Part shown: in pieces, positions 3,777-59,493 of the stretch
Position numbering within the stretch: the first letter of the stretch is position 1
How the letters are laid out: every line of letters starts with the position of its first letter
IMG/VR virus record: IMGVR_UViG_3300046314_000298
From: an uncultured virus (IMG/VR IMGVR_UViG_3300046314_000298)
Taxonomy: Duplodnaviria > Heunggongvirae > Uroviricota > Caudoviricetes
Direction: 5' to 3' (one strand)
DNA: 64,000 nucleotides
Program-made: the position numbers and the translations under genes
Notes under the pieces: model-generated
The model's database searches: none
Seen by the model: only the letters and a program-made list of their open reading frames with translations
What the model was told of the DNA's origin: nothing

Positions 3777-6700
3777 TTATTCTTCCACGTACTTGGTTTT
3801 AAATCCGGTACAGGTGAACATGTGGTTGATGATCTGTATGGGTTTCGTGTTACCGTAAGTAACCAGATTCCTATCCACGATCTCTTTGATATCAGAAGGT
3901 TTCTCAGCATCCAAGATGTTCCTTGCCATATGGCGCTGAACAAGAGGGTTACCAGATCTATCCAACATCTCAGCCACAGCTTCCCGACCACAATACCCCA
4001 CAAACAAACGACCCTCAGTCTCACCGATGGTCCTGACCGGTGTGTTGCGATAAGGTCTTGCATGCTTTTCACGACGGTTGACCTGAGCCAACAATCCATG
4101 CAACTGAAGGTTGCCTGTGCTCACAGCTGTCCAGTCGTCAGCGATCTTTTCCAACAGCATCATGTACAGAGGAGCGATCCTTACATTTCTTTCCGTAGTC
4201 ACCATTTCACCAGAATTACCACGATAGGTTACCTTACCGTAGACTGGTTTGTAAGGAGACGCCTCTATCCTTTTGACGATCTCTTTGGATGAGAGCTGTT
4301 TGTCAATAGGCACATAGGCATACGCATGGTTAGAGATGATACTGACCATGTGCTCAGCCTGACTCTCTGGTGTTACCATACTTGCGTAGTACATGGCTTG
4401 TTTGTCTGAGAACAACTTATAGAAGTCCACGACATACTGATGCACGGCTTGTATCTTTTGGATATCGTGCTTAGCCAGTAACTGTTCTGCTGTCACAGCT
4501 GTGGGTGTCAATCGCTCATATCCAAATTGTTGTCTGACGTGCTGGGTGATGTCCCTCAGCGTAGCACTCATGTGCTGTTCATACAACCTACCTAAGTTCA
4601 TGCGGGAGATAGTAGATGCTGCGTCCATCACCACATCCGCACGATTGCCATTTTCGTCCACTGGCATGTTCTCAGGTTCCTCAGTTTTTACAACTACGCC
4701 TTTCTTATTGTCCAGTAAAGTCGCTCAGCTTCACAGCTTACTCTCTTTACCCGGTGTGCTAAGACACCCGCCTGTACTTTCATACAGGAACAGACTATAT
4801 CTTCATCCTTCCTTTCGGTTAGGATGTCTCCCATTTCGAATCTTGCTAAGATCCTACGCCTTACGGCTAGTCGTTGGCCACACCCCATGTAAGTATATAT
4901 GTACATACTTAGTTAGGAGCTTCGGTGCGGATTGCCCATATATCTTTATTAGTTTTACCTTACCTGTGTGATTAGCACAGCCGTTAACTCATTTTCATGG
5001 TTAAGTTGGTCAATAAAGTTTTGGGGGTTCCCCGGCAATTAGAGAGATTTTTTGTATTTACATTACTGTAAATAGGTGGCAGGATTTTATATTTCATTGG
5101 TAGTTACCAGACTTATTTCGATGTGTCGATCTAGCTAAGTCTAAAGATATTCTCTGGCCAGGTGGTAAATCCAGTCAGATATCTTAAAATGTAGTTCTCA
5201 TATGGGATTTCATGATTATCATCCAAAAGCTCTATGACTTTATTTTGGTCTAGCTTAGTTTGATTTATAAAATCTTGAAAATTCCATACGGTTTGTTTAC
5301 GCTCAGTGACATTGTAAACAATTATATCGAAAGTGTTGAACAACGTTTCCTTAAAACCTAAACCGCGAAGTAGTCTTGTTTTAAACTTCTCACGGTCTAT
5401 ATTTAGTTGTCTTATCCACTCTTCAATAGGTTGTATTATATCACCGTACTTGACGTTTTGATGGTAGTATCTTACATTCACCATTTGCTCTCTTGGATTA
5501 CTCCATTTACAATTAGCTTTGTAATAACCCTTATCGCCGTCTATTCTGTCGAGCGTTGTGTTGTCCGGTCTTGGACCCATATCGTCGTAAAAGTGCTTGA
5601 ATGACTTAAGCCAGCTTTCACATATGGTGATCCCGCGTTCACCGTAAAGATGGTATTTTATGTTATTTTTATTAGTGCAACGCTGGATCATATTCTCCCA
5701 AGTAGAATATTCCCTGCTTTGCCATAAACCATGCTTTGTTTTATTAGCCTGACGGTAACACCCACAACTTTTATTTGTAGGTCTTTTCAATAGAGGTAGA
5801 CATATATTTTTAATTACGCCGCAATCACACTGGCATTTAAAAATACGCCCGCTCTTACCCATCGGAGCTTCTTCGAGAACTGTTAACATATTGAAACGTT
5901 GTCCAATATCAATCTTGCTTCTGCTCATTTCATACTCACCTCTTTCTTTTAAATGATTTCAAATCGACACATCTGAAATCTAGGTTGTTGTTCTACCAAT
6001 GAACTATAAATTTTTATTTACCACCATGATTATCGGTTAACTTAAACCCTTCGCATGGCTCTATGGTGTACTCAATCACAAACTGGATTTGATATTCGTC
6101 AACAGATGTTTTCCGTGATTGGAGTTGCAGTGGTTGTTTAAAGCTACTGCTGTTGTGATTGGTTTGCACCATGGCTTCACAGACAAGCTTGTCAAACTTA
6201 GGTGTAGTCAAGATCTCATTTGTGCCAAACTTTGTTCTGTTGTCCTTGCGAAGAGAAATTTCCAGATCGATCACTTTCTTGTAAAAAGATTGATTGGCCT
6301 CATGGTACCTGTTTAGGTAGTGAGACATCTCCACCGGCATATTCTTAACAGGTGCGTTATTGCGAATGACTTTGACATCCACCACCACTCCACCCCCACC
6401 TCGTACGTAGACAGCTTCGTCAAACATGTGGTCGACTTCCATCAGATCGATACGGGACATCTCTACAGGCGAAAGAGATGTGTTGAAATCTCTGAACGCC
6501 ATGAGAATACCATCTTCACGGATCTTGTCACCAATCTCTGGGAAAGGTTTGACCTCGTTGATGGTACCGTAAAGGTTGAGCGGGAATTGTTTACTACCGA
6601 AGTTGACCACTCGGGTGTCATAGATCTTGAACTTAAGCTTAGGCAGAAAGTCCTTAGAGACCATAATACCGTCCTCAGCCACAGACGGAATAGACATCAA

Positions 6701-16976: not shown

Positions 16977-19900
16977 TAACTCTCCAACCAAGATGAGATT
17001 GTTGCAATATTAGGCTTTGGGATACTTACGTTACCTGAAACCTGGAACGGCTTAGTCATCTGAAATATGTTAAACTCTGGTGAGAGAGGATACCACATAT
17101 TAGACATCTTTTCGTCAAGTGAGATAGAGACATTGAGAGCGTCCATAACTACCTCACTCTAGCTTTAACTAAGTTCGCTAAACTTATTGATCTTGCTTAA
17201 GGATCCTGATACTTTCATATCAGATTAGACTATATCTTCATCTTTCGATGCTCTTCGTTTCCACTCGCTTGAGTGTACTCCCATGTGGGATAGTCGTTGA
17301 CCACACTCCATGTAAGTATATATGTCTATACTTAGTTAGGAGCTTCGGTGCGGATTGCCCAATCCTTGTATCTTTTACCATACCCAGATAGTTACTCTGG
17401 CCACTGCATATATTTCTATCGCAGTTTGGTGCACAAGGCTCTAAGGAGTTTCCCGCAATTAGAAGAGTTTAAACGACGGCAACACTCTACCGTCAAAATC
17501 AGCATTTGGCTTATTGTCCAGTAAAGTCGCTCAGCTTCACAGCTTACCCTCTTTACCCGGTGCGCTTACACACCCACCTGTACTTTCATACAGGAACAGA
17601 TCATATCTTCATCCTTATTAAAGGATGCTCTCCGCTTCTTCCCTGCTTAGGGCTTTACTCGGTCGCAACTCCGATGATCGTTGAACTTTACGCATGGTTG
17701 ATAAGAATCAACTTTAGCGTCTTAGCTGCTGATTACCCAATTCTTATATTTTTCAAACTATCACGCTCATCGTTTCCGATCACGTTGTAGTATATAAGAC
17801 TCTAAAGGACTTCCCAGCAATTCAAAGAGATAACTTAGTCAATTACTCAACTAAGTGCCTTATCTCATCATTATTAAAATACAATGTCAATCGCCACACA
17901 CCGCCTATCAATGCTTTTCTTCTAGCTATTGTAGGGATATATTGTCTAGCATACCCAAATTGCTGACTAATATCTATAGGACTTGTTATAATCCTAGTTT
18001 CGCCAGTTTCAACGTTTTCGATAAAATATCCGTTACCCCTAAAAGATCTTTTATCGAGACATAATTGTTTAAAGTACCTCAGCTCCTTATCGGTAAGATC
18101 TTTAAACTGTCCGTTGAAACTAAATTGCCAACCTTTAATCGGAATGTTCTTTAATCTTTTATTTTTAATAGATAGTTGAACACCCCATGAAACACCAGTT
18201 ATTTTCTCACAAGCTGCCAGCGATTCAAATTTACGTTCTTTGCGTGTGAATATATTTCTAGCAGTAACTGGTATTTTTATTTGTAAATCTTCTAAGGATG
18301 GTTTTTCCTGAGGCCATGGTCTTGCATCTAATTTTCGTTTGAAACATAATCCGTCTGAATAGATTTTAATATCGGAAGATCTAAGTCTGACGGACACGGT
18401 TAGTTCAGAATATCCAAGTTTCAGAGAGCAATCCCTAGCACTTTTATATTCAGTCACCTCATCCGTGATTATGTTTTTAACAAGTATTGCTGAACCATAC
18501 CTGAATTGATCGTACTCATTTTCTAAATTTTCATAATTTTTCCATTCTTTTAATTCAGATAGCCATTGAAACTGCATGTAATTTTCCCAAAGTTTACAAC
18601 CGGGTTTTGTTTTTAACCGATGGTAAAGTAAATCATTACTCAAGCCTAATGCAATTGCGCATTGCGTCGGGTTATCATAAATAGTGATTTCATTGGTTTT
18701 AACATTTCTAGTTATGACGTCTATGGTATACTTTTTCTCATTTTCAAGAATTCTATTTACTTTTTCATCAGATCTATCACAATTCGAATAAATGACATTT
18801 CCTCTAGGTGTCACCCATTCTAAATTATCTAAGGTGTCAAAGCCAGGTATCTCATTTTTATGATTTACGTACAGCGATTCAACGTTTCTAGGATAATCTA
18901 GCCATGCTAAGCACATAGCTCTGTGTCTGAAAAATTTGTAAGATGTATTCTCATTAAGGGAAACATCAGGAATACCTGAATAGGAATGGTAACCATCTCT
19001 ATCACAAAAAGCTTTTTTATCCACACCAGTTATCAAATTTCTAACTTTTCCTTCCTTTGTTATACCATATCTTGTAAAACCAGGAATATAAGCATGATCT
19101 TTGTGTACTGGATGTGATAAACCAACTGGAAATTTCCAAATCAAGTTGCTAGGATGAGAGTTATTAAAATCACCGTCCTCGAACATCAAGTGTAATAAAT
19201 GCACTTGACTTTCATGAACGTGAACGGGCTTAAAAGCCGAAGCTATGATAAACTCTATTGGATATAGACCAGGACCTCTTATCCAATCTAAGAAAATCAA
19301 AGTGCTTCCTGTTTCAGTTGAGATACACTCAATCTGAATGTTCTCTCGCGATATGACATCACCTTCTGAGTTAACAGAATAACGACCGTCAGACCAGGGT
19401 AGCGAAAGATAGTTTTGGGTTTGTAAATATTTACTAAGCATATATCCTTTCTATATAGAAAGGTATGCTAAACGGCGATTGACAATAATGATAAGAATTA
19501 AGCGCGCACTGTTAAAATGTGCATTCCAATAGTGAGGTCATTTGGGTTCTTTTTGAACTTAGTAATCTTCACTCGTTGAGCCGACCCCTGCAAAAGGCTC
19601 GGATTTCTTTGGAGACATACATACAAACCTTTATCAGGCGCTTCGTCTATCAGCTCCTGCATAAACCTTTCTAACAAGGGGTGGTGTTTGTTAGTATGTT
19701 TGTATAGGAAACCAATAGAGTCATTCAGACCCATGCCGTAACGCCGCAGCTTATTCAACATGTGGATACGGTAAGCTGTGGTGGCCATACACCAAGGAGC
19801 TTCTATTTCATCATACTCTTTACCCGCTGTAATAGAGATGATAACTGCTCGGAATGAGAAGTTGGTTCTGGCTCCGAACATGTGTTTCCTGAAGTGACCG

Positions 19901-34616: not shown

Positions 34617-34928
34617 TGGTAGGCAGGATGAGATTCGAACTCACTATCTTCGGCTTCACATTTGTGTTAGTTTCCTAACTCTGTGGACTATATCACCATC
34701 CTTAACTTAATATTAGGATGTCGGGCGCTTTACTCTGTTATTAAGAAGATTCTACTTCTCAGATAGTCTCTGCACTTTCCTAGGGTATACCCTAAGCTTA
34801 GCTCAGTATTGCCGTCGTCATTATACGTTACGGTTTCACTGAATTCACCCGATTATTCAATACTGATTACTCAGTAAGGTCACCATTGAGATGAGGCCGC
34901 CGCTTATAACCCCTTAAGCTTCCCGCCT
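34617..34928 (-). tRNA. tRNA with CAU anticodon (probably Ile2), exons 34928..34891 and 34656..34617
   Basis: Acceptor AGGCGGG/CCUGCCU, loop CU CAU AA after splicing, GUUCGAAUC T-loop, encoded CCA; adjacent to tilS. Confidence 0.88.
34657..34890 (-). ncRNA. Group I intron (234 nt) in tRNA-CAU at position 36/37
   Basis: P1 UCAUC/GGUGA with U-G; terminal G; core GAAUUCAGUGAAA, GGCAAUACUGAGC, GUGCAGAGACUA, GGUGAUAUAGUCC. Confidence 0.9.
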
Positions 34929-45854: not shown

Positions 45855-46049
45855 TTATATTTCTGTTGATTTAACAATGATAGATAAGCCATCTGGATGA
45901 TAGCTGGAAGTGCTCTTACAAGCCATGTTGATAGATTCTTCTATAGATTCAAACAGAGGATGATTCTGTCTAAATCTAAGCTGTACGTGTTTCTCTTTAC
46001 CTTCGTCATTGACGATAGTTGTATTAAAGACTATTTCGTTACCGATCAT
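45855..46049 (-). CDS. Hypothetical protein
   Basis: 64 aa, ATGA coupling, GAGG RBS. Confidence 0.55.
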   Translation of the reverse strand: MIGNEIVFNTTIVNDEGKEKHVQLRFRQNHPLFESIEESINMACKSTSSYHPDGLSIIVKSTEI

Positions 46050-46270
46050 GATTTATCAAACCTCTTTTTTATCTCTCTAAAAACTACCATCGATAACACC
46101 AGAGCTGAAAATATATTCAGTAAAGGAGCTAAAGACACCACTATCAAAATACCACCTGTGGTAGCACTGAAGTCTACACCTCTCTCATCATAAAAAAGAT
46201 AAGCGCAGATAGCTGTTAGAACAAAACCAAAGATTACAAAAGTCAGATGTGTAGTTATAAGAAATTCCAT
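46046..46270 (-). CDS. Small two-TM membrane protein
   Basis: Start reassigned to MEFLITTH; the upstream extension overlaps structured RNA. Confidence 0.55.
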   Translation of the reverse strand: MEFLITTHLTFVIFGFVLTAICAYLFYDERGVDFSATTGGILIVVSLAPLLNIFSALVLSMVVFREIKKRFDKS

Positions 46271-46403
46271 TTTAATACCGTTGTTGTAGTTACAGTCAAA
46301 TAATTTCGGGTAAAAAAATAAGGGCGGGACAGTTTGTATCTGCTTGTGACAACCGAGTCTGGGTAGACTGATCACTTGCATCAACAAACTGTCCCTAATT
46401 AAG

Positions 46404-46504
46404 AACAAAGCCAACATGAATCGAACATGTTAAGTAAATATAACCTTCTACGCAGAATAGCACTGCTCCAGTTAATTTACTTGCCTCTACCAGACGGCTT
46501 TGTT
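46404..46504 (-). ncRNA. tRNA-like RNA with an extended anticodon-position arm
   Basis: AACAAAGCC/GGCUUUGUU end pairing, CUGGUAGAG D-loop-like segment, AACAUG-UUCGAUU-CAUGUU T-arm; no CCA. Confidence 0.65.
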
Positions 46505-47668
46505 TCTCTATTTATTACAAGATAGAGAAGGATGTGTCAGTCACCGCATCCAAGATATTTATAACACCGACTCGTGTTACCGGTTTGTCCAAACCTGGTG
46601 AAAGGATAAGCTACATCTGTTTAACTCAATCGCCACATACCCAGTAGTTCAGGTAAGGGTTAAGATGATTGTGCTATAATAAGCACAGAGCCTTAATACG
46701 ACAGTGTTTTAATTCATCAACATAACACTGAAGATACCCGAGTTCTCAATAGAGAATCTCGCTGTATTTTTGATGCCTAAGCACTCTAAAGCTATCTCTC
46801 CTAAAATAAGAGATAGCTTATAGGCTGCTCTCTGGGGTGATCAATCCCAAAGTTTACAACTTCCCAAAGATATCATTCATACAGTTCCCGACCAAGGGTA
46901 GTCTATATAAGAGATATCCATAGGGCGTACGATTTGGCGGTTGGTTAGACCACCTTCTACTCCTTAACAAAAAGTTAAAGGCAGGCTATTATCGTGAGCG
47001 CACCTCTTTCTATTACACACTTGTGATGTGTTTCGTCCTTGTGTTTAAAGCCTTAGGACTCATCAGATAGATAAGGCTCAAATGAAGTTTATGTGGCCTC
47101 ATTCTTTTATAAAGGGGTTTTCCCATAGCAGACTAAATGACTTCTGTCTATCTAATCTGCTACAGGCAAACACCTGAGTGCTAACTTGTTATCATATCAC
47201 AAAGGTAGATAACCACAACCTATTACAATAAAGACGTGTGAATCGCCTGCTTGCTTTGGCAAGAACAGCCCTCGAAGCTAGAGCCACATCAGGTCTGAAC
47301 AATCGTCAGAACACATGATCCCAGGGGATTTAAAAAGCATCAAACACAGTTCTGGGAAACTATGTGCTAGATCGACAGTTTATATTTTCCTTGTTTTATC
47401 AACTAAGTGAAAATACCGATCACTTTATACTGCTCCATCGTGCGTGTATTTTGTTATCACGCTAACGTCCCGATAGTACGTTTACCTAAGTTACCAATGG
47501 TCAATACCTGCACCCTAGCCTTACGCCCGCAAGCGATCTATTAACTTAACTCCGTAATCCGCAATGATATACGCACATTAAGAAATGTTTACACACTAGA
47601 TTTACTAAGCAGCGACTTGTTAGTTACCATTGATACGATCAAGTCTACTCCGGTTTACTTAGGTTAAA
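46505..47668 (-). ncRNA. ORF-free structured RNA tract (~1.15 kb) downstream of the tRNA cluster
   Basis: No ORF of 60 aa or more on either strand; many hairpins; contains a hammerhead ribozyme. Confidence 0.6.
47009..47079 (-). ncRNA. Type I hammerhead ribozyme, predicted cleavage between 47014 and 47013
   Basis: UCUAU-CUGAUGA-GUCCU..AGGAC-GAA-ACACAU-CACAA-GUGUGU-A-AUAGA: complete core, three stems, GUA site. Confidence 0.9.
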
Positions 47669-47736
47669 TGGTACCAGGAACGGGACTCGAACCCGTAAGA
47701 CCCTTGCGGAAGTATTAAGTTTTTAAAGTACATGGG

Positions 47737-48045
47737 TGGCCCGCTCCGGAATCGAACCGGAACGCCCCTTACGAAAGCGTCAGATTTTAAGTCTGATCTC
47801 TACCACTGCAGTTTTCACTGCCACTTTAGTGTGTTTGTGGTCTGGACTATCCCTTCAACTACATCCTAAATGTTTAGCTGGGCGATTATAGTCTCTGCAC
47901 GTCTTTCTATATTTCTATAGAAATTTCGCTCAGGATTGGCATCAGCAATTAACTGTTAAGCTTTCCCTGAATTTACGCCATTTTACTACATTATTTCTAA
48001 TGTAGGACACATCAAATATATGTCTACCTATTTCATCAGCGGGCC
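47737..48045 (-). tRNA. tRNA-Leu(UAA), exons 48045..48020 and 47797..47737, no encoded CCA
   Basis: GGCCCGC/GCGGGCC acceptor, UCAGA-CUUAAAA-UCUGA anticodon arm, long variable arm, UCCGG-UUCGAUU-CCGGA T-arm, A73. Confidence 0.88.
47798..48019 (-). ncRNA. Group I intron (222 nt) at tRNA-Leu position ~25/26
   Basis: P1 GACAU|AU..AUGUGUC with U-G; P10 AUCAGA/UUUGAU; terminal G; core AAAUUCAGGGAAA, GCCAAUCCUGAGC, GUGCAGAGACUA, GAAGGGAUAGUCC. Confidence 0.92.
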
Positions 48046-48056
48046 ACCCATGTACT

Positions 48057-48557
48057 CTATTTCTTTTCTAATCTGTAGTATTCTTTCTTTATTTCAGTTC
48101 TTTCGATGATCACGCCGCCATTTTGAACTTTGGCGCCATAAGAACCTGAACATTTTTTACTACAAAAAGGACCTGCTCTATTAGAAACATAATTAGTTAT
48201 CTGATTTTTACTAGGGGTAAATATTTCCTCACACCCAGCACACTTTACAGGATCCACCTTTACTCGTTTAGCGTCTTCACTTGCGTGAACAGGCAGTGTT
48301 TTAACAATAAGGTTATTTAGAGAATTATTGGTGAAATTTCTATCGTGATGGTCAACAGTCTCACCGTCTTTTAACTTTTGTTTTAATTCAATTTCTTTTA
48401 AAGCCTTGGGGTAAGAGATGGTTTTGGTCTTACCTTTAGTCCCCTTAGCAGCTTTTGAATTATTTAAAACAATATGCTGTCGACCATCACTTCTGTGATA
48501 AGGACCTAAGACGGATGTATATTCTGGATATAATCCAAGAAGTATTTGCTTATCCAT
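48057..48557 (-). CDS. Free-standing HNH endonuclease with C-terminal zinc-finger-like domain
   Basis: ETVDHHDRNFTNNSLNNL...H; CAGC...FCSKKC. Confidence 0.85.
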   Translation of the reverse strand: MDKQILLGLYPEYTSVLGPYHRSDGRQHIVLNNSKAAKGTKGKTKTISYPKALKEIELKQKLKDGETVDHHDRNFTNNSLNNLIVKTLPVHASEDAKRVKVDPVKCAGCEEIFTPSKNQITNYVSNRAGPFCSKKCSGSYGAKVQNGGVIIERTEIKKEYYRLEKK

Positions 48558-48652
48558 GTTTTCCCTTTACCGATTTGGGCATCCTGGTAATATCTATATC
48601 TCACGTTGCAGTCAGTTAGAATATTTATCACTAAATGATTCTAGAAAAGGAT

Positions 48653-48727
48653 TGGTGCCGGATGTCTGATTTGAACAGACGACCTATCGCTTACAAGGCG
48701 AGTGCTCTACCCCTGAGCTAATCCGGC
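48653..48727 (-). tRNA. tRNA-Thr(UGU), intronless
   Basis: GCCGGAU/AUCCGGC acceptor, CU UGU AA loop, GUUCAAAUC, CCA. Confidence 0.93.
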
Positions 48728-48789
48728 TTACTCTCCGCATTCTATTACAAACACGAATAAAAAAATACCCTGTTTGACCAGGGGTATTT

Positions 48790-49338
48790 TCAATTGATAC
48801 TATCGCCATTAAAGAAATTAGCTATGTGGTTATAGTGTTCTGTGATCTTGAGATTAAACACAGGTACATTATACAAACATGCCAAATCTATAGCGATCTT
48901 AGTACCGCCAGTTCTTGTACTCGTAGTCCCTCTACCTATATAACCATCTCTGGTATAACAGATAACGAACTTACTAGGATGACTCAAATCATTCCCTAAT
49001 ATCTGAAGTACATTTCTACCATAGAGCTTAAGAAGAGCTGGGGACAATTTATCCATGTAAGGACAAACGTTCTCCAGGATTCTGTAAGCTTCGTTTGGTA
49101 TGTGATATTGATAATCTAAATCGTTGAAGCCTTTCCAGGGTAGATAGATTTCACAATTCAGTTTATTTCTAACACCTTGGTAGAACGCTGAGTCTGCTCC
49201 TTCAGCACCACCTGAACGCAAGATGTATTGCTTCTGCTCTAGAAGAGCAGCTACTTTAGTCATAGCGTCCAGATAGAACTGAGGAGTATCTCTGTTACCT
49301 ATACCTGTGTAGGTACGGTTACTGAGTAGATCAATCAT
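48790..49338 (-). CDS. SLOG/DprA-like nucleotide-binding protein
   Basis: YTGIGNRDTP, LRSGGAEGADSAF, RNVLQILG, GGT. Confidence 0.75.
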   Translation of the reverse strand: MIDLLSNRTYTGIGNRDTPQFYLDAMTKVAALLEQKQYILRSGGAEGADSAFYQGVRNKLNCEIYLPWKGFNDLDYQYHIPNEAYRILENVCPYMDKLSPALLKLYGRNVLQILGNDLSHPSKFVICYTRDGYIGRGTTSTRTGGTKIAIDLACLYNVPVFNLKITEHYNHIANFFNGDSIN

Positions 49339-49990
49339 GACCTTCGATCTTCATCAGGATACTGGCTTGAACCATGTCGATAGAACCGTGACAATCTATC
49401 TTGATGATTTTACCATAGTAGTTATCTGGAAGTTCATTACACAGCTTAGTCACTTTAGACATGAGAGTGCTATTAGCTTCATGGACATCTTGCTTCTTGT
49501 CTGTGTAATCACGCTGACCTTTTTGAAGTACTCGTTCAGCAGCTACTTCTTCTGACAGAGTAAGTACAAAGGTGATGTCAGCTGGTCTGAGTGCTGAGTG
49601 CACATACTCAGAATATTCAGTATACTTTTTCATGTATATAGCATCTTCAGGGTGCTCAGCCAAAGCTTGTTGATACAGAATGTTAGACAAGATGTACCTG
49701 TCTAATACCACGTAATCATTTTCTAACAGAGCCTGTTCGATTACTTTTTTGTGAGCTGCGCGATCAGCTGTGTAAAGATCGGAGATTTCTGTTCTGGACA
49801 GATCTTTACCTTCTCCGTTAAGGTAAGCTGCGATGCACTTACCTGTATCAGATTGATATTGAGGGTAACCAGACAGAAAAACCTTCAAGCCAAGCTTAGA
49901 CATATTCTCAGCCAAAAGCTTAGCTTGAGTAGCTTTACCCACGCCATCGATACCTTCGATAGCGATCAACTTCCCGATCTTACTGCTCAT
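49331..49990 (-). CDS. tmk: Thymidylate kinase
   Basis: IEGIDGVGKATQ P-loop, ADR, LDRY..SN. Confidence 0.88.
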   Translation of the reverse strand: MSSKIGKLIAIEGIDGVGKATQAKLLAENMSKLGLKVFLSGYPQYQSDTGKCIAAYLNGEGKDLSRTEISDLYTADRAAHKKVIEQALLENDYVVLDRYILSNILYQQALAEHPEDAIYMKKYTEYSEYVHSALRPADITFVLTLSEEVAAERVLQKGQRDYTDKKQDVHEANSTLMSKVTKLCNELPDNYYGKIIKIDCHGSIDMVQASILMKIEGHD

Positions 49991-57948: not shown

Positions 57949-59493
57949 TTACATGTTCAAAGCGTAACCGACACAATACAGATAAGGCGTGACTCCATCA
58001 AAGGACTCCACCATAAAGCTGAATGTATCGATTTTGTTGTTGATCAAAGTAAGAGCTGGAGCTGCACCATCAGGGAACTTCACGTTAGCTGGGAATACAA
58101 GATCACCACCTTTGTGAATAATAACCACTTTGTAGTCAAAACCTATCCGTGTGAGATCTAAGTTCTGAATATTGAAGTTGGTTACGTTAGAGATTAACTC
58201 TATACGGATAACCTGATGAGTATCTAAATCCCAAGAAACAGTACCCGAAGCTGGCTGTACTTTATTGGTAGTAGAGACTTTCTGTGGTTTGGTGAAGTTA
58301 TTCTCTGCGGAAGGAGACATGTAGTCTGTACCAGCAGCAGCTAAAGTCAATATGTTGTTGGTAGTCTTTAACAGACCTGTTCCGGCAACGTTGATACCAC
58401 CACCCACACCGCCACCTGTGCTTATTACACTGATGGCGTCTGATAAAGCCACCATATCGGTTATGATACCGTTACCAGTAATACCTGGGGTGATGCCGTT
58501 AACTATGTCTGATAAAGCAGTTAAGCTTGTGATGTCAGCTTTTAAAACATTTATACCATTGACTGTGTCAGTCAATGCATCTAAGGCAACCTGACTGGCT
58601 TTACTCAGAGAAAGAGCATTTACCGTATCACTTAAGACATCAAGATCTACCTGCGTAGCTTTAAGCTGATTAATTTGATTAACCAAATCACTCAATGCAT
58701 CCAAATCTACTTGACTTGCTTTACCAGCTATCAATACAGAATGCGATTGAATAAGGGTAGTCAGTGCGGTGATTTCAGCATTTATAGCTGTAAGGTCTAC
58801 AGTACCGCCACCGCCACCACCGCCCCCAGCTTGTAAGTTTGTTACTGCTGTTTGCAGATTGGTAATGATAGTAGACAAACCAGAAGTGTCAGCAATAGCG
58901 TGTCCATGACCAATAGCTGATTTACCTGCTAAACTGGTTTGGATAGAACCTAAACTATCATTCAGTCCCGATATGCTAGACATGTCATGAACATGACTAA
59001 CAGCTGCTTTACCAGCCAATGCTGGTGATAATCCAGCTATAGTAGTCATGTCGTGTACATGACCAGTTTCAGCTTTCATAGACAAAGTCTGTGCTAAGAG
59101 ACTGATATCATCTATAGCGTGCGTATGGCCTAAAGCAGCCTTACCAGCCAACGACAGATCAAGACCACTTATCTCAGAGCTAACGTGCGTATGTCCAAAA
59201 TTAGACTTGCCAGCCAGAGCCGTCATCAAACCTGAGATATCATCTGTAGCTAGGGTATGTGTGTGATTTGCATCAGCTTTACTTAGCAAAGCAGTCAGCA
59301 CAGCAGTTGATACTGGCTTATCGGCATCACTTGTGTTGCTGACATTACCCAGACCCACATCTTGTTTAGTGAGTATAGATTTAAAAGTATTCAGAGTCAT
59401 TCGGTAATTCTGATTACCAAATATCAAAGACACTTGTTCCAGACCTGTGGCTGTGGTTAACAGCGAAAAGTCACTTATCTTTCTATTAGCCAT
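57949..59493 (-). CDS. His-repeat and coiled-coil tail fibre-like protein
   Basis: Six HxH repeats, poly-Gly hinge, four KASQVDLDALSDxVN-type repeats, C-terminal beta domain. Confidence 0.75.
   Translation of the reverse strand: MANRKISDFSLLTTATGLEQVSLIFGNQNYRMTLNTFKSILTKQDVGLGNVSNTSDADKPVSTAVLTALLSKADANHTHTLATDDISGLMTALAGKSNFGHTHVSSEISGLDLSLAGKAALGHTHAIDDISLLAQTLSMKAETGHVHDMTTIAGLSPALAGKAAVSHVHDMSSISGLNDSLGSIQTSLAGKSAIGHGHAIADTSGLSTIITNLQTAVTNLQAGGGGGGGGTVDLTAINAEITALTTLIQSHSVLIAGKASQVDLDALSDLVNQINQLKATQVDLDVLSDTVNALSLSKASQVALDALTDTVNGINVLKADITSLTALSDIVNGITPGITGNGIITDMVALSDAISVISTGGGVGGGINVAGTGLLKTTNNILTLAAAGTDYMSPSAENNFTKPQKVSTTNKVQPASGTVSWDLDTHQVIRIELISNVTNFNIQNLDLTRIGFDYKVVIIHKGGDLVFPANVKFPDGAAPALTLINNKIDTFSFMVESFDGVTPYLYCVGYALNM

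Follow-up and report, generated by a model that had tools for sequence, protein, structure and literature searches.

A pseudoknot-stabilised type I hammerhead ribozyme that probably frees the 5' end of a conserved phage non-coding RNA

To cleave fast at low Mg2+, a hammerhead ribozyme needs elements of its stems I and II to be in tertiary contact. The accessible text of Perreault et al. (2011, PMC3088659) describes hammerheads of all three types with pseudoknots between these stems, in ~40% of representatives, and places hammerheads in phages and prophages, where they are thought to cut long transcripts. The cut leaves a 2',3'-cyclic phosphate at the end of the 5' product and a 5'-OH at the start of the 3' product (PMC6765202, accessible text). 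Phage hammerheads have been known since 2011 and their purpose is still largely open; the roles of bacterial and phage ribozymes are described as undefined in the same text (PMC6765202). Here we analyse a hammerhead on the minus strand of a window of 64,000 nucleotides (the whole stretch of phage DNA considered) that has the same catalytic core and three-way junction as those of Perreault et al. (PMC3088659, accessible text). It differs from them in its open stem I (type I), in the use of its 5' tail as the partner of loop II, and in the 15-nt length of that loop, and it stands as a single copy before a non-coding RNA, whereas several copies flanking protein genes are described there. In the type II consensus of that text (PMC3088659), the strand after stem II pairs beside stem I, which, from its wording, would correspond to the arrangement found here in circularly permuted form. 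The ribozyme itself is ordinary; what is particular is the combination of a type I fold with a 5'-tail partner, a long loop II, and a place directly before a non-coding RNA.

Besides the close relative, 23 other viral type I hammerhead loci share the stem II and stem III start of this ribozyme. They have the CUGAUGAGUCC...GGACGAAACAC frame and a short stem I, as here, but their loop II span is 9-16 nt shorter, and in several of them the complementarity to loop II lies, by eye, in the 3' tail after stem I and not in the 5' tail. No sequence relation was found between these 23 loci and the RNA that follows the present ribozyme. A literature search that covered titles and the starts of abstracts returned no paper on a hammerhead-headed phage RNA, and a search on hammerhead ribozymes together with jumbo phages returned only work that, judged by title, is unrelated.

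The minus-strand motif at 47078-47009 is a genuine and complete type I hammerhead ribozyme of this well-known class (Table 1). It contains the core of the class (C3 U4 G5 A6 N7 G8 A9, G12 A13 A14, the A15.1-U16.1 pair, and an H17 that is not G), surrounded by three helices, with stems I, II, and III of 5, 5, and 6 bp and GUA as the cleavage triplet. The order of the strands is the 5' strand of stem I, the core, hairpin II, GAA, hairpin III, UA, and the 3' strand of stem I, and the topology is that of type I, stem I being open and a loop closing each of stems II and III. The tertiary contact linking stems I and II is supplied by a pseudoknot of 6 bp, in which the 5' tail pairs with loop II. The initial annotation had described a complete core with stems I-III at this place, and this is borne out by reading of the sequence, by a descriptor, and by alignment to RF00163. 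It had also pointed to AAGGCU in loop II and AGCCUU 5' of stem I as complementary, and the two are indeed exact complements, with the pairing kept through compensatory changes in a diverged homologue (L080, see below). Hammerhead numbering, moreover, predicts the cut at the very position that had been proposed, 47014/47013.

Table 1. Positions of the hammerhead elements, of the RNA behind the predicted cut, and of the group I introns in the 64-kb window
Feature	Position	Strand	Basis or detail
Pseudoknot 5' strand, AGCCUU	47078-47073	minus	pairs with 47054-47049
Linker A between pseudoknot strand and stem I	47072	minus	
Stem I 5' strand (positions 2.5-2.1)	47071-47067	minus	sequence reading, descriptor match
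Core CUGAUGA (C3-A9)	47066-47060	minus	same letters in L002 and L080
Stem II, 5 bp, G10.1-C11.1 first	47059-47055 with 47039-47035	minus	
Loop II, 15 nt	47054-47049 (opening AAGGCU)	minus	opening is the pseudoknot 3' strand
Core G12 A13 A14 (GAA)	47034-47032	minus	sequence and RF00163 alignment
Stem III, 6 bp (A15.1-U16.1, C15.2-G16.2, and four more), loop CACAA	47031-47026 with 47020-47015	minus	
Predicted cleavage site	after A17 (47014), before A1.1 (47013)	minus	hammerhead numbering on the sequence
Stem I 3' strand (1.1-1.5)	47013-47009	minus	would form the 5' end of the released RNA
Conserved structured RNA, ~235 nt, directly behind the predicted cut	47013 to ~46780	minus	blastn, RNAalifold
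Group I intron	4771-5098	minus	Rfam
Group I intron	17206-17498	minus	Rfam
Group I intron	17577-17887	minus	Rfam
Group I intron	34664-34917	minus	Rfam
Group I intron	47821-48029	minus	Rfam

A descriptor of CUGANGA, GAAA, and UH with at least 4 bp in every stem, run on both strands, matches once in the whole window and in none of 300 dinucleotide shuffles. In 989 random 64-kb sequences drawn from a first-order Markov model with the dinucleotide statistics of the window, there were 56 matches at ≥3 bp per stem, one at ≥4/4/4, and none at ≥5/5/6; the chance expectation for a hammerhead of ≥4/4/4 bp is ~0.001 per 64-kb window, with the pseudoknot not counted. The minimum-free-energy fold of the ribozyme includes the three-way junction, and its stability is no better than that of shuffled sequences (z -0.6). 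An Rfam scan of the window at the gathering score lists no hammerhead. The motif aligns over the full length of the 45-position RF00163 model (Hammerhead_1); no core base is missing and stem II is that of the consensus (GUCC/GGAC), but the score is 16.1-17.4 bits, where gathering requires 34, with E values of 5, 1.9, and 0.089 that vary with the stretch searched. The score falls below gathering because loops II and III are long, with insertions of 14 nt and 11 nt where the model expects 3 and 2. The low score is a limit of a short, small-loop model and not the sign of an absent catalytic feature, and the Rfam type I model overlooks real hammerheads with long loops such as this one.

The comparison with relatives places the ribozyme among conserved elements. 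In a close relative (L002), which is 93.6% identical over the tract, the ribozyme is the same letter for letter, and the block 47095-46990 holds none of the 108 differences between the two; this clean block is not unique, since further stretches of the tract, 47552-47403 and 47202-47153, are equally free of differences. A more distant homologue came from the neighbouring gene for a DprA-like protein, for which no protein above 52% identity was found outside its own cluster. Alignment of 30 DprA-like proteins led to 80 viral loci (746,218 bases, both strands), in which the descriptor gave four matches, namely the close relative (here as L079), L080, and two weak ‘type II’ matches (L109 and L117). 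L080 is a locus from a 113-kb viral contig with a DprA-like protein 57% identical to that of the window, and its ribozyme was found without its sequence serving as bait. A covariance model (R1) built from the window and L002 only scores L080 at 50.2 bits, with E of 3e-9 over 806,675 bases, while the next matches, L142 and L145, have E of 1.5 and are without the core.

When the pseudoknot is added by hand to the model alignment, which compares two distinct sequences only (the window lineage and L080) and in which stems I-III were aligned by a model that contains them, there are 22 pairs, all 43 of 43 cells hold standard pairs, and seven pairs are changed on both sides in L080. The pseudoknot, stem I, and stem III account for two of these each and stem II for one. 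With slid controls the number of such pairs was 0-1, and four of 500 shuffles reached the observed values. For the 16 stem pairs by themselves, 31 of 31 lettered cells are paired in the two distinct sequences and five pairs are changed on both sides. The covariation in the pseudoknot was not fitted, because the pseudoknot is absent from the model; all six of its pairs are kept in L080, with two changed on both sides, one changed to a wobble, and none broken. Spacing is also kept: in both, six bases separate the pseudoknot strand from C3, and the rest of loop II has 9 nt. In L080 the GUA triplet is present, stem II has 5 bp, stem III is 2 bp longer with the loop CACAA unchanged, and the fifth pair of stem I is absent (A opposite A by reading, a gap in the model alignment). 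There is exactly one copy of the ribozyme per record in the three viral records. A reading to be weighed is that the motif arose by chance, or is a relic that is inactive and has no function today. A score below Rfam gathering and a lack of excess folding stability would fit it, as would the fact that scanning very many windows meets some chance motifs, even at ~0.001 per window. However, in a homologue of ~70% identity no core base is lost and all 22 pairs are intact, seven with compensatory changes, which would not be so in a decaying relic, and all three viral records have the motif on the transcribed strand and within non-coding DNA. This reading is very improbable. On the sequences compared, we accept both the ribozyme and the pseudoknot as real.

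The region behind the predicted cut is conserved together with the ribozyme. By blastn, window 47067-46780 matches L080 5637-5925 with 69% identity over 298 nt, and this block is the only non-coding homology between the two, at about the identity level of the genes that they share. The homology runs from the pseudoknot strand to a conserved tail that lies ~235 nt behind the cut, and the flanks are unrelated. The downstream RNA is predicted to fold into ~6-9 helices (~nine in RNAalifold), with an invariant hairpin loop CUAACCA and an invariant segment ACCCUUGGUCGGGA. In a structure-blind MAFFT alignment there are 64 pairs. Of their cells, 90.5% are paired, and both sides have changed in 11 pairs, where slid controls reach 1-4; these counts are favoured because that alignment is also the source of the structure. 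The best-supported helices are those in alignment columns 80-102, 104-126, 134-152, and 236-258. A candidate closing helix would join the 5' end of the downstream RNA to the conserved 3' tail, in a register that, by eye, differs between the two lineages. Scans against Rfam 15 with E up to 10 (window 46000-49500 and 46400-47720, L080 5530-6080) found no match to the known large tRNA-linked phage RNAs or to any other family and gave noise-level hits only, to miRNA, snoRNA, and leader models. We conclude from these alignments that the ribozyme is co-inherited with a folded RNA of ~235 nt, and that this RNA is a candidate for a new family, matching none that is catalogued.

The surroundings of the two homologues differ on the upstream side. 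In L080 the ribozyme starts ~90 nt after the stop codon of the DprA-like gene, and no tRNA was found in the 10.5-kb locus. The initial annotation had placed the ribozyme in a tRNA-linked non-coding tract and had seen it as dividing the transcript into two RNAs of ~650 and 500-690 nt, and so as a possible processing enzyme of an ncRNA polycistron. What holds of this is the gene-free tract, which is found in RNA-library contigs, while the tRNA linkage is specific to the lineage of the window. Specifically, both the linkage and the ‘polycistron’ are features of one phage lineage and not part of the shared module, because L080 shares only the ribozyme and the RNA, without a tRNA. The two long RNAs likewise find no counterpart, since only the hammerhead and ~235 nt (47078 to ~46780) are common to L080. 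Homology is confined to the ribozyme and these ~235 nt, and therefore the likeliest role of the ribozyme is the release of a 5' end and not the making of two halves of ~600 nt. In L080 the RNA is followed by a terminator-like hairpin of 15 bp with 11 U (-37.1 kcal/mol, z -7.2, 0 of 200 shuffles), and in the window no terminator-like site was found after the downstream RNA.

We propose that, probably though with room for other readings, the pseudoknot-stabilised type I hammerhead heads a conserved phage non-coding RNA of ~235 nt and frees its 5' end. Minus-strand transcription would enter the ribozyme after passing, in the window, through the tRNA region and the gene-free RNA upstream, and, in L080, through the DprA-like gene. 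As the ribozyme folds, the 5' tail AGCCUU would pair with the start of loop II and hold stems I and II side by side, and self-cleavage would then take place co-transcriptionally between 47014 and 47013. The body of the ribozyme would remain on the upstream fragment, ending in a 2',3'-cyclic phosphate, and the downstream structured RNA would be released with a fixed 5'-OH end, whatever lies upstream. Cleavage itself, its timing during transcription, and the making of a 5' end as the selected function are the parts of this proposal that we infer from the comparison. Since the upstream context differs while the downstream RNA is conserved, the hammerhead is best read as freeing the downstream RNA. 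RiboJ, a synthetic hammerhead insulator placed before mRNAs, removes the leader and gives a constant 5'-OH end. The present ribozyme would likewise trim a leader, and it is a natural element that stands before a structured non-coding RNA.

The products of cleavage can also be looked at from the other side. A type I hammerhead leaves almost the whole ribozyme on the 5' product, so that it might serve the upstream RNA, either by giving it a defined, compact 3' end with a 2',3'-cyclic phosphate or by insulating upstream messages; the transcripts meant would be tRNA-Leu with ~590 nt of RNA in the window and the DprA-like mRNA in L080. An RNA-library contig (X22, 47043-47466) links the 5' part of the ribozyme to the upstream RNA, and processing of polycistronic phage transcripts by hammerheads has been proposed (PMC3088659 and PMC6765202, accessible text). 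Nevertheless, the upstream sequence is unrelated between the lineages whereas the conserved downstream RNA starts exactly at the ribozyme, and service to an upstream RNA leaves the co-inheritance of ribozyme and downstream RNA, seen in three of three records, without an explanation. We regard both forms of this alternative as unlikely.

A further alternative concerns the 5' tail, which could be part of a regulated switch. The tail would sit either in the pseudoknot (active) or in an alternative pairing or nested helix (inactive), with conditions or a factor setting cleavage. In the minimum-free-energy folds of both homologues the 5' tail is indeed preferably engaged in nested alternatives, and the mutants described in the accessible text of PMC3088659 show that pseudoknots strongly tune the rate. 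However, minimum-free-energy programs draw no pseudoknots, and nested alternatives are thus expected artefacts. One such alternative, in which the 5' tail pairs with bases just 3' of stem I, is kept in L080 for four of five pairs, mostly as wobbles (by reading), and so is less well kept than the pseudoknot, this being a comparison by reading in which only the pseudoknot was counted. No ligand- or protein-binding element is evident, and a switch seems to us rather improbable.

For the release of a downstream 5' end, a stronger version can be formulated. The ribozyme and the ~235-nt RNA may together constitute one new class of phage ncRNA gene, in which the hammerhead is obligatory for maturation and the released 5'-OH RNA, bearing its invariant loops, acts in trans; we put this forward tentatively and think it somewhat doubtful. 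A target in trans during infection, for example the host RNA-processing or defence machinery, is conceivable within this version, and again we would not count on it. If true, it would give a phage hammerhead a concrete biological job, which is still missing for most genomic ribozymes (PMC6765202, accessible text). A conserved ribozyme directly before a structured, uncatalogued RNA, in freshwater RNA-library contigs, makes a tidy unit for experiments, and the case offers a test of phage hammerheads as built-in makers of 5' ends for non-coding RNAs.

Searches for further relatives returned few. Neither blastn of the tract against GenBank phages nor, beyond the close relative, several scans of viral contigs gave a new homologue: a scan with the pseudoknot letters fixed found 48 loci, of which by reading only the close relative is a hammerhead, and scans with the tRNA-Leu 3' end and with protein anchors (the ORF at 46046-46417 and the DprA-like protein) found the close relative only. 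In metagenome contigs the same protein anchors gave the close relative and one contig of 1,562 nt that ends at 47070, inside the ribozyme. Of two motif scans for the downstream RNA, one returned both known relatives and the other one of them. A pattern scan of genome contigs gave nine matches where ~7 are expected by chance, all without the other motifs and coding-like, and these were rejected. The sequence at L080 5847-5890 fits the downstream-RNA pattern, yet its contig is missing from one viral-contig scan; pattern scans can thus miss true matches, because a contig with a fitting sequence was not returned.

The window is part of a 72.7-kb IMG/VR viral contig with a CheckV completeness of 27%, and is therefore probably from a very large phage. 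The genes around the ribozyme lie on the minus strand, with the ribozyme in a gene-free tract. Among the public sequencing runs listed as containing words of the tract, all 24 are labelled freshwater metagenome and six are RNA libraries; DNA runs contain 46-97% of these words. Contigs from four RNA runs (four studies) cover 46471-46760, 46808-46996, 46822-46972, 47043-47466, and 47150-47702, and such contigs show neither strand nor RNA ends; DNA can also occur in RNA libraries. The tract sequence occurs in RNA libraries, which says only that. Two of the contigs lie on the conserved downstream RNA (46808-46996, X19, and 46822-46972, X20), and X22 spans upstream RNA together with the ribozyme's 5' part. 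The contigs end at 46996 (X19), 46972 (X20), and 47043 (X22), with no common end point, and no RNA-run contig covers 46997-47042, which includes the cut site, or the ORF at 46046-46417; the uncovered parts carry no evidence. Adapter read-through was observed at 47466 (X22) and at 46737 (X23).

Two of the RNA-library contigs lie outside the shared module, one in the gene-free sequence upstream of the ribozyme (47150-47702) and one after the conserved RNA (46471-46760), and neither stretch is common to L080. A hairpin lies at 47365-47344, and the letters that vary in run X20 (47348-47350 and 47361-47362) leave, by reading, all seven of its pairs intact, with one A-U changed to G-C. The hairpin variants together with these contigs suggest further structured RNAs that are specific to the window lineage. 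As to promoters, no 11-mer from 47200-47080 recurs on the same strand, a 16-mer at 47115-47100 has three matches at ≤3 mismatches (expected 1.33; three are also reached in 14 of 100 shuffles), and a sigma-70 scan gave nothing convincing upstream of the ribozyme in either the window or L080. No repeats were found in the tract.

The tRNAs upstream of the tract and the introns of the window call for separate comment. The tRNA-Leu(UAA) at 48587-47668 (minus strand) is split by an insertion of 858 nt (48560-47703) and is intact in the close relative (L002 2673-2761). The insertion carries an ORF for an HNH endonuclease (48557-48057) and a second tRNA-Leu(UAA), itself interrupted by a group I intron (Rfam 48029-47821), and has the look of a homing cassette supplying a tRNA to replace the one it splits. 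By reading, this intron lies between tRNA positions 25 and 26 and not in the anticodon loop, its boundaries being placed by a P1 U.G at 48020, a P10 of 6 bp, and the terminal G (47798). Removal of 48019-47798 in silico gives a tRNA-Leu(UAA) in ARAGORN, whereas the intron option of ARAGORN on the unspliced DNA gives a tRNA-Val whose anticodon loop would hold an intron of 217 nt. In all, five group I introns lie above the Rfam gathering score in the 64 kb, every one on the minus strand. At 58930-59022 (minus strand) ARAGORN predicts an unusually long tRNA-Met of 93 nt that the Rfam tRNA model does not list at its gathering score. An insertion within a tRNA gene was also seen in the close relative, where at L002 2085-2572 the D-loop of a tRNA-Thr is interrupted by ~490 nt with an ORF, the tRNA-Thr of the window (48653-48727) being intact.
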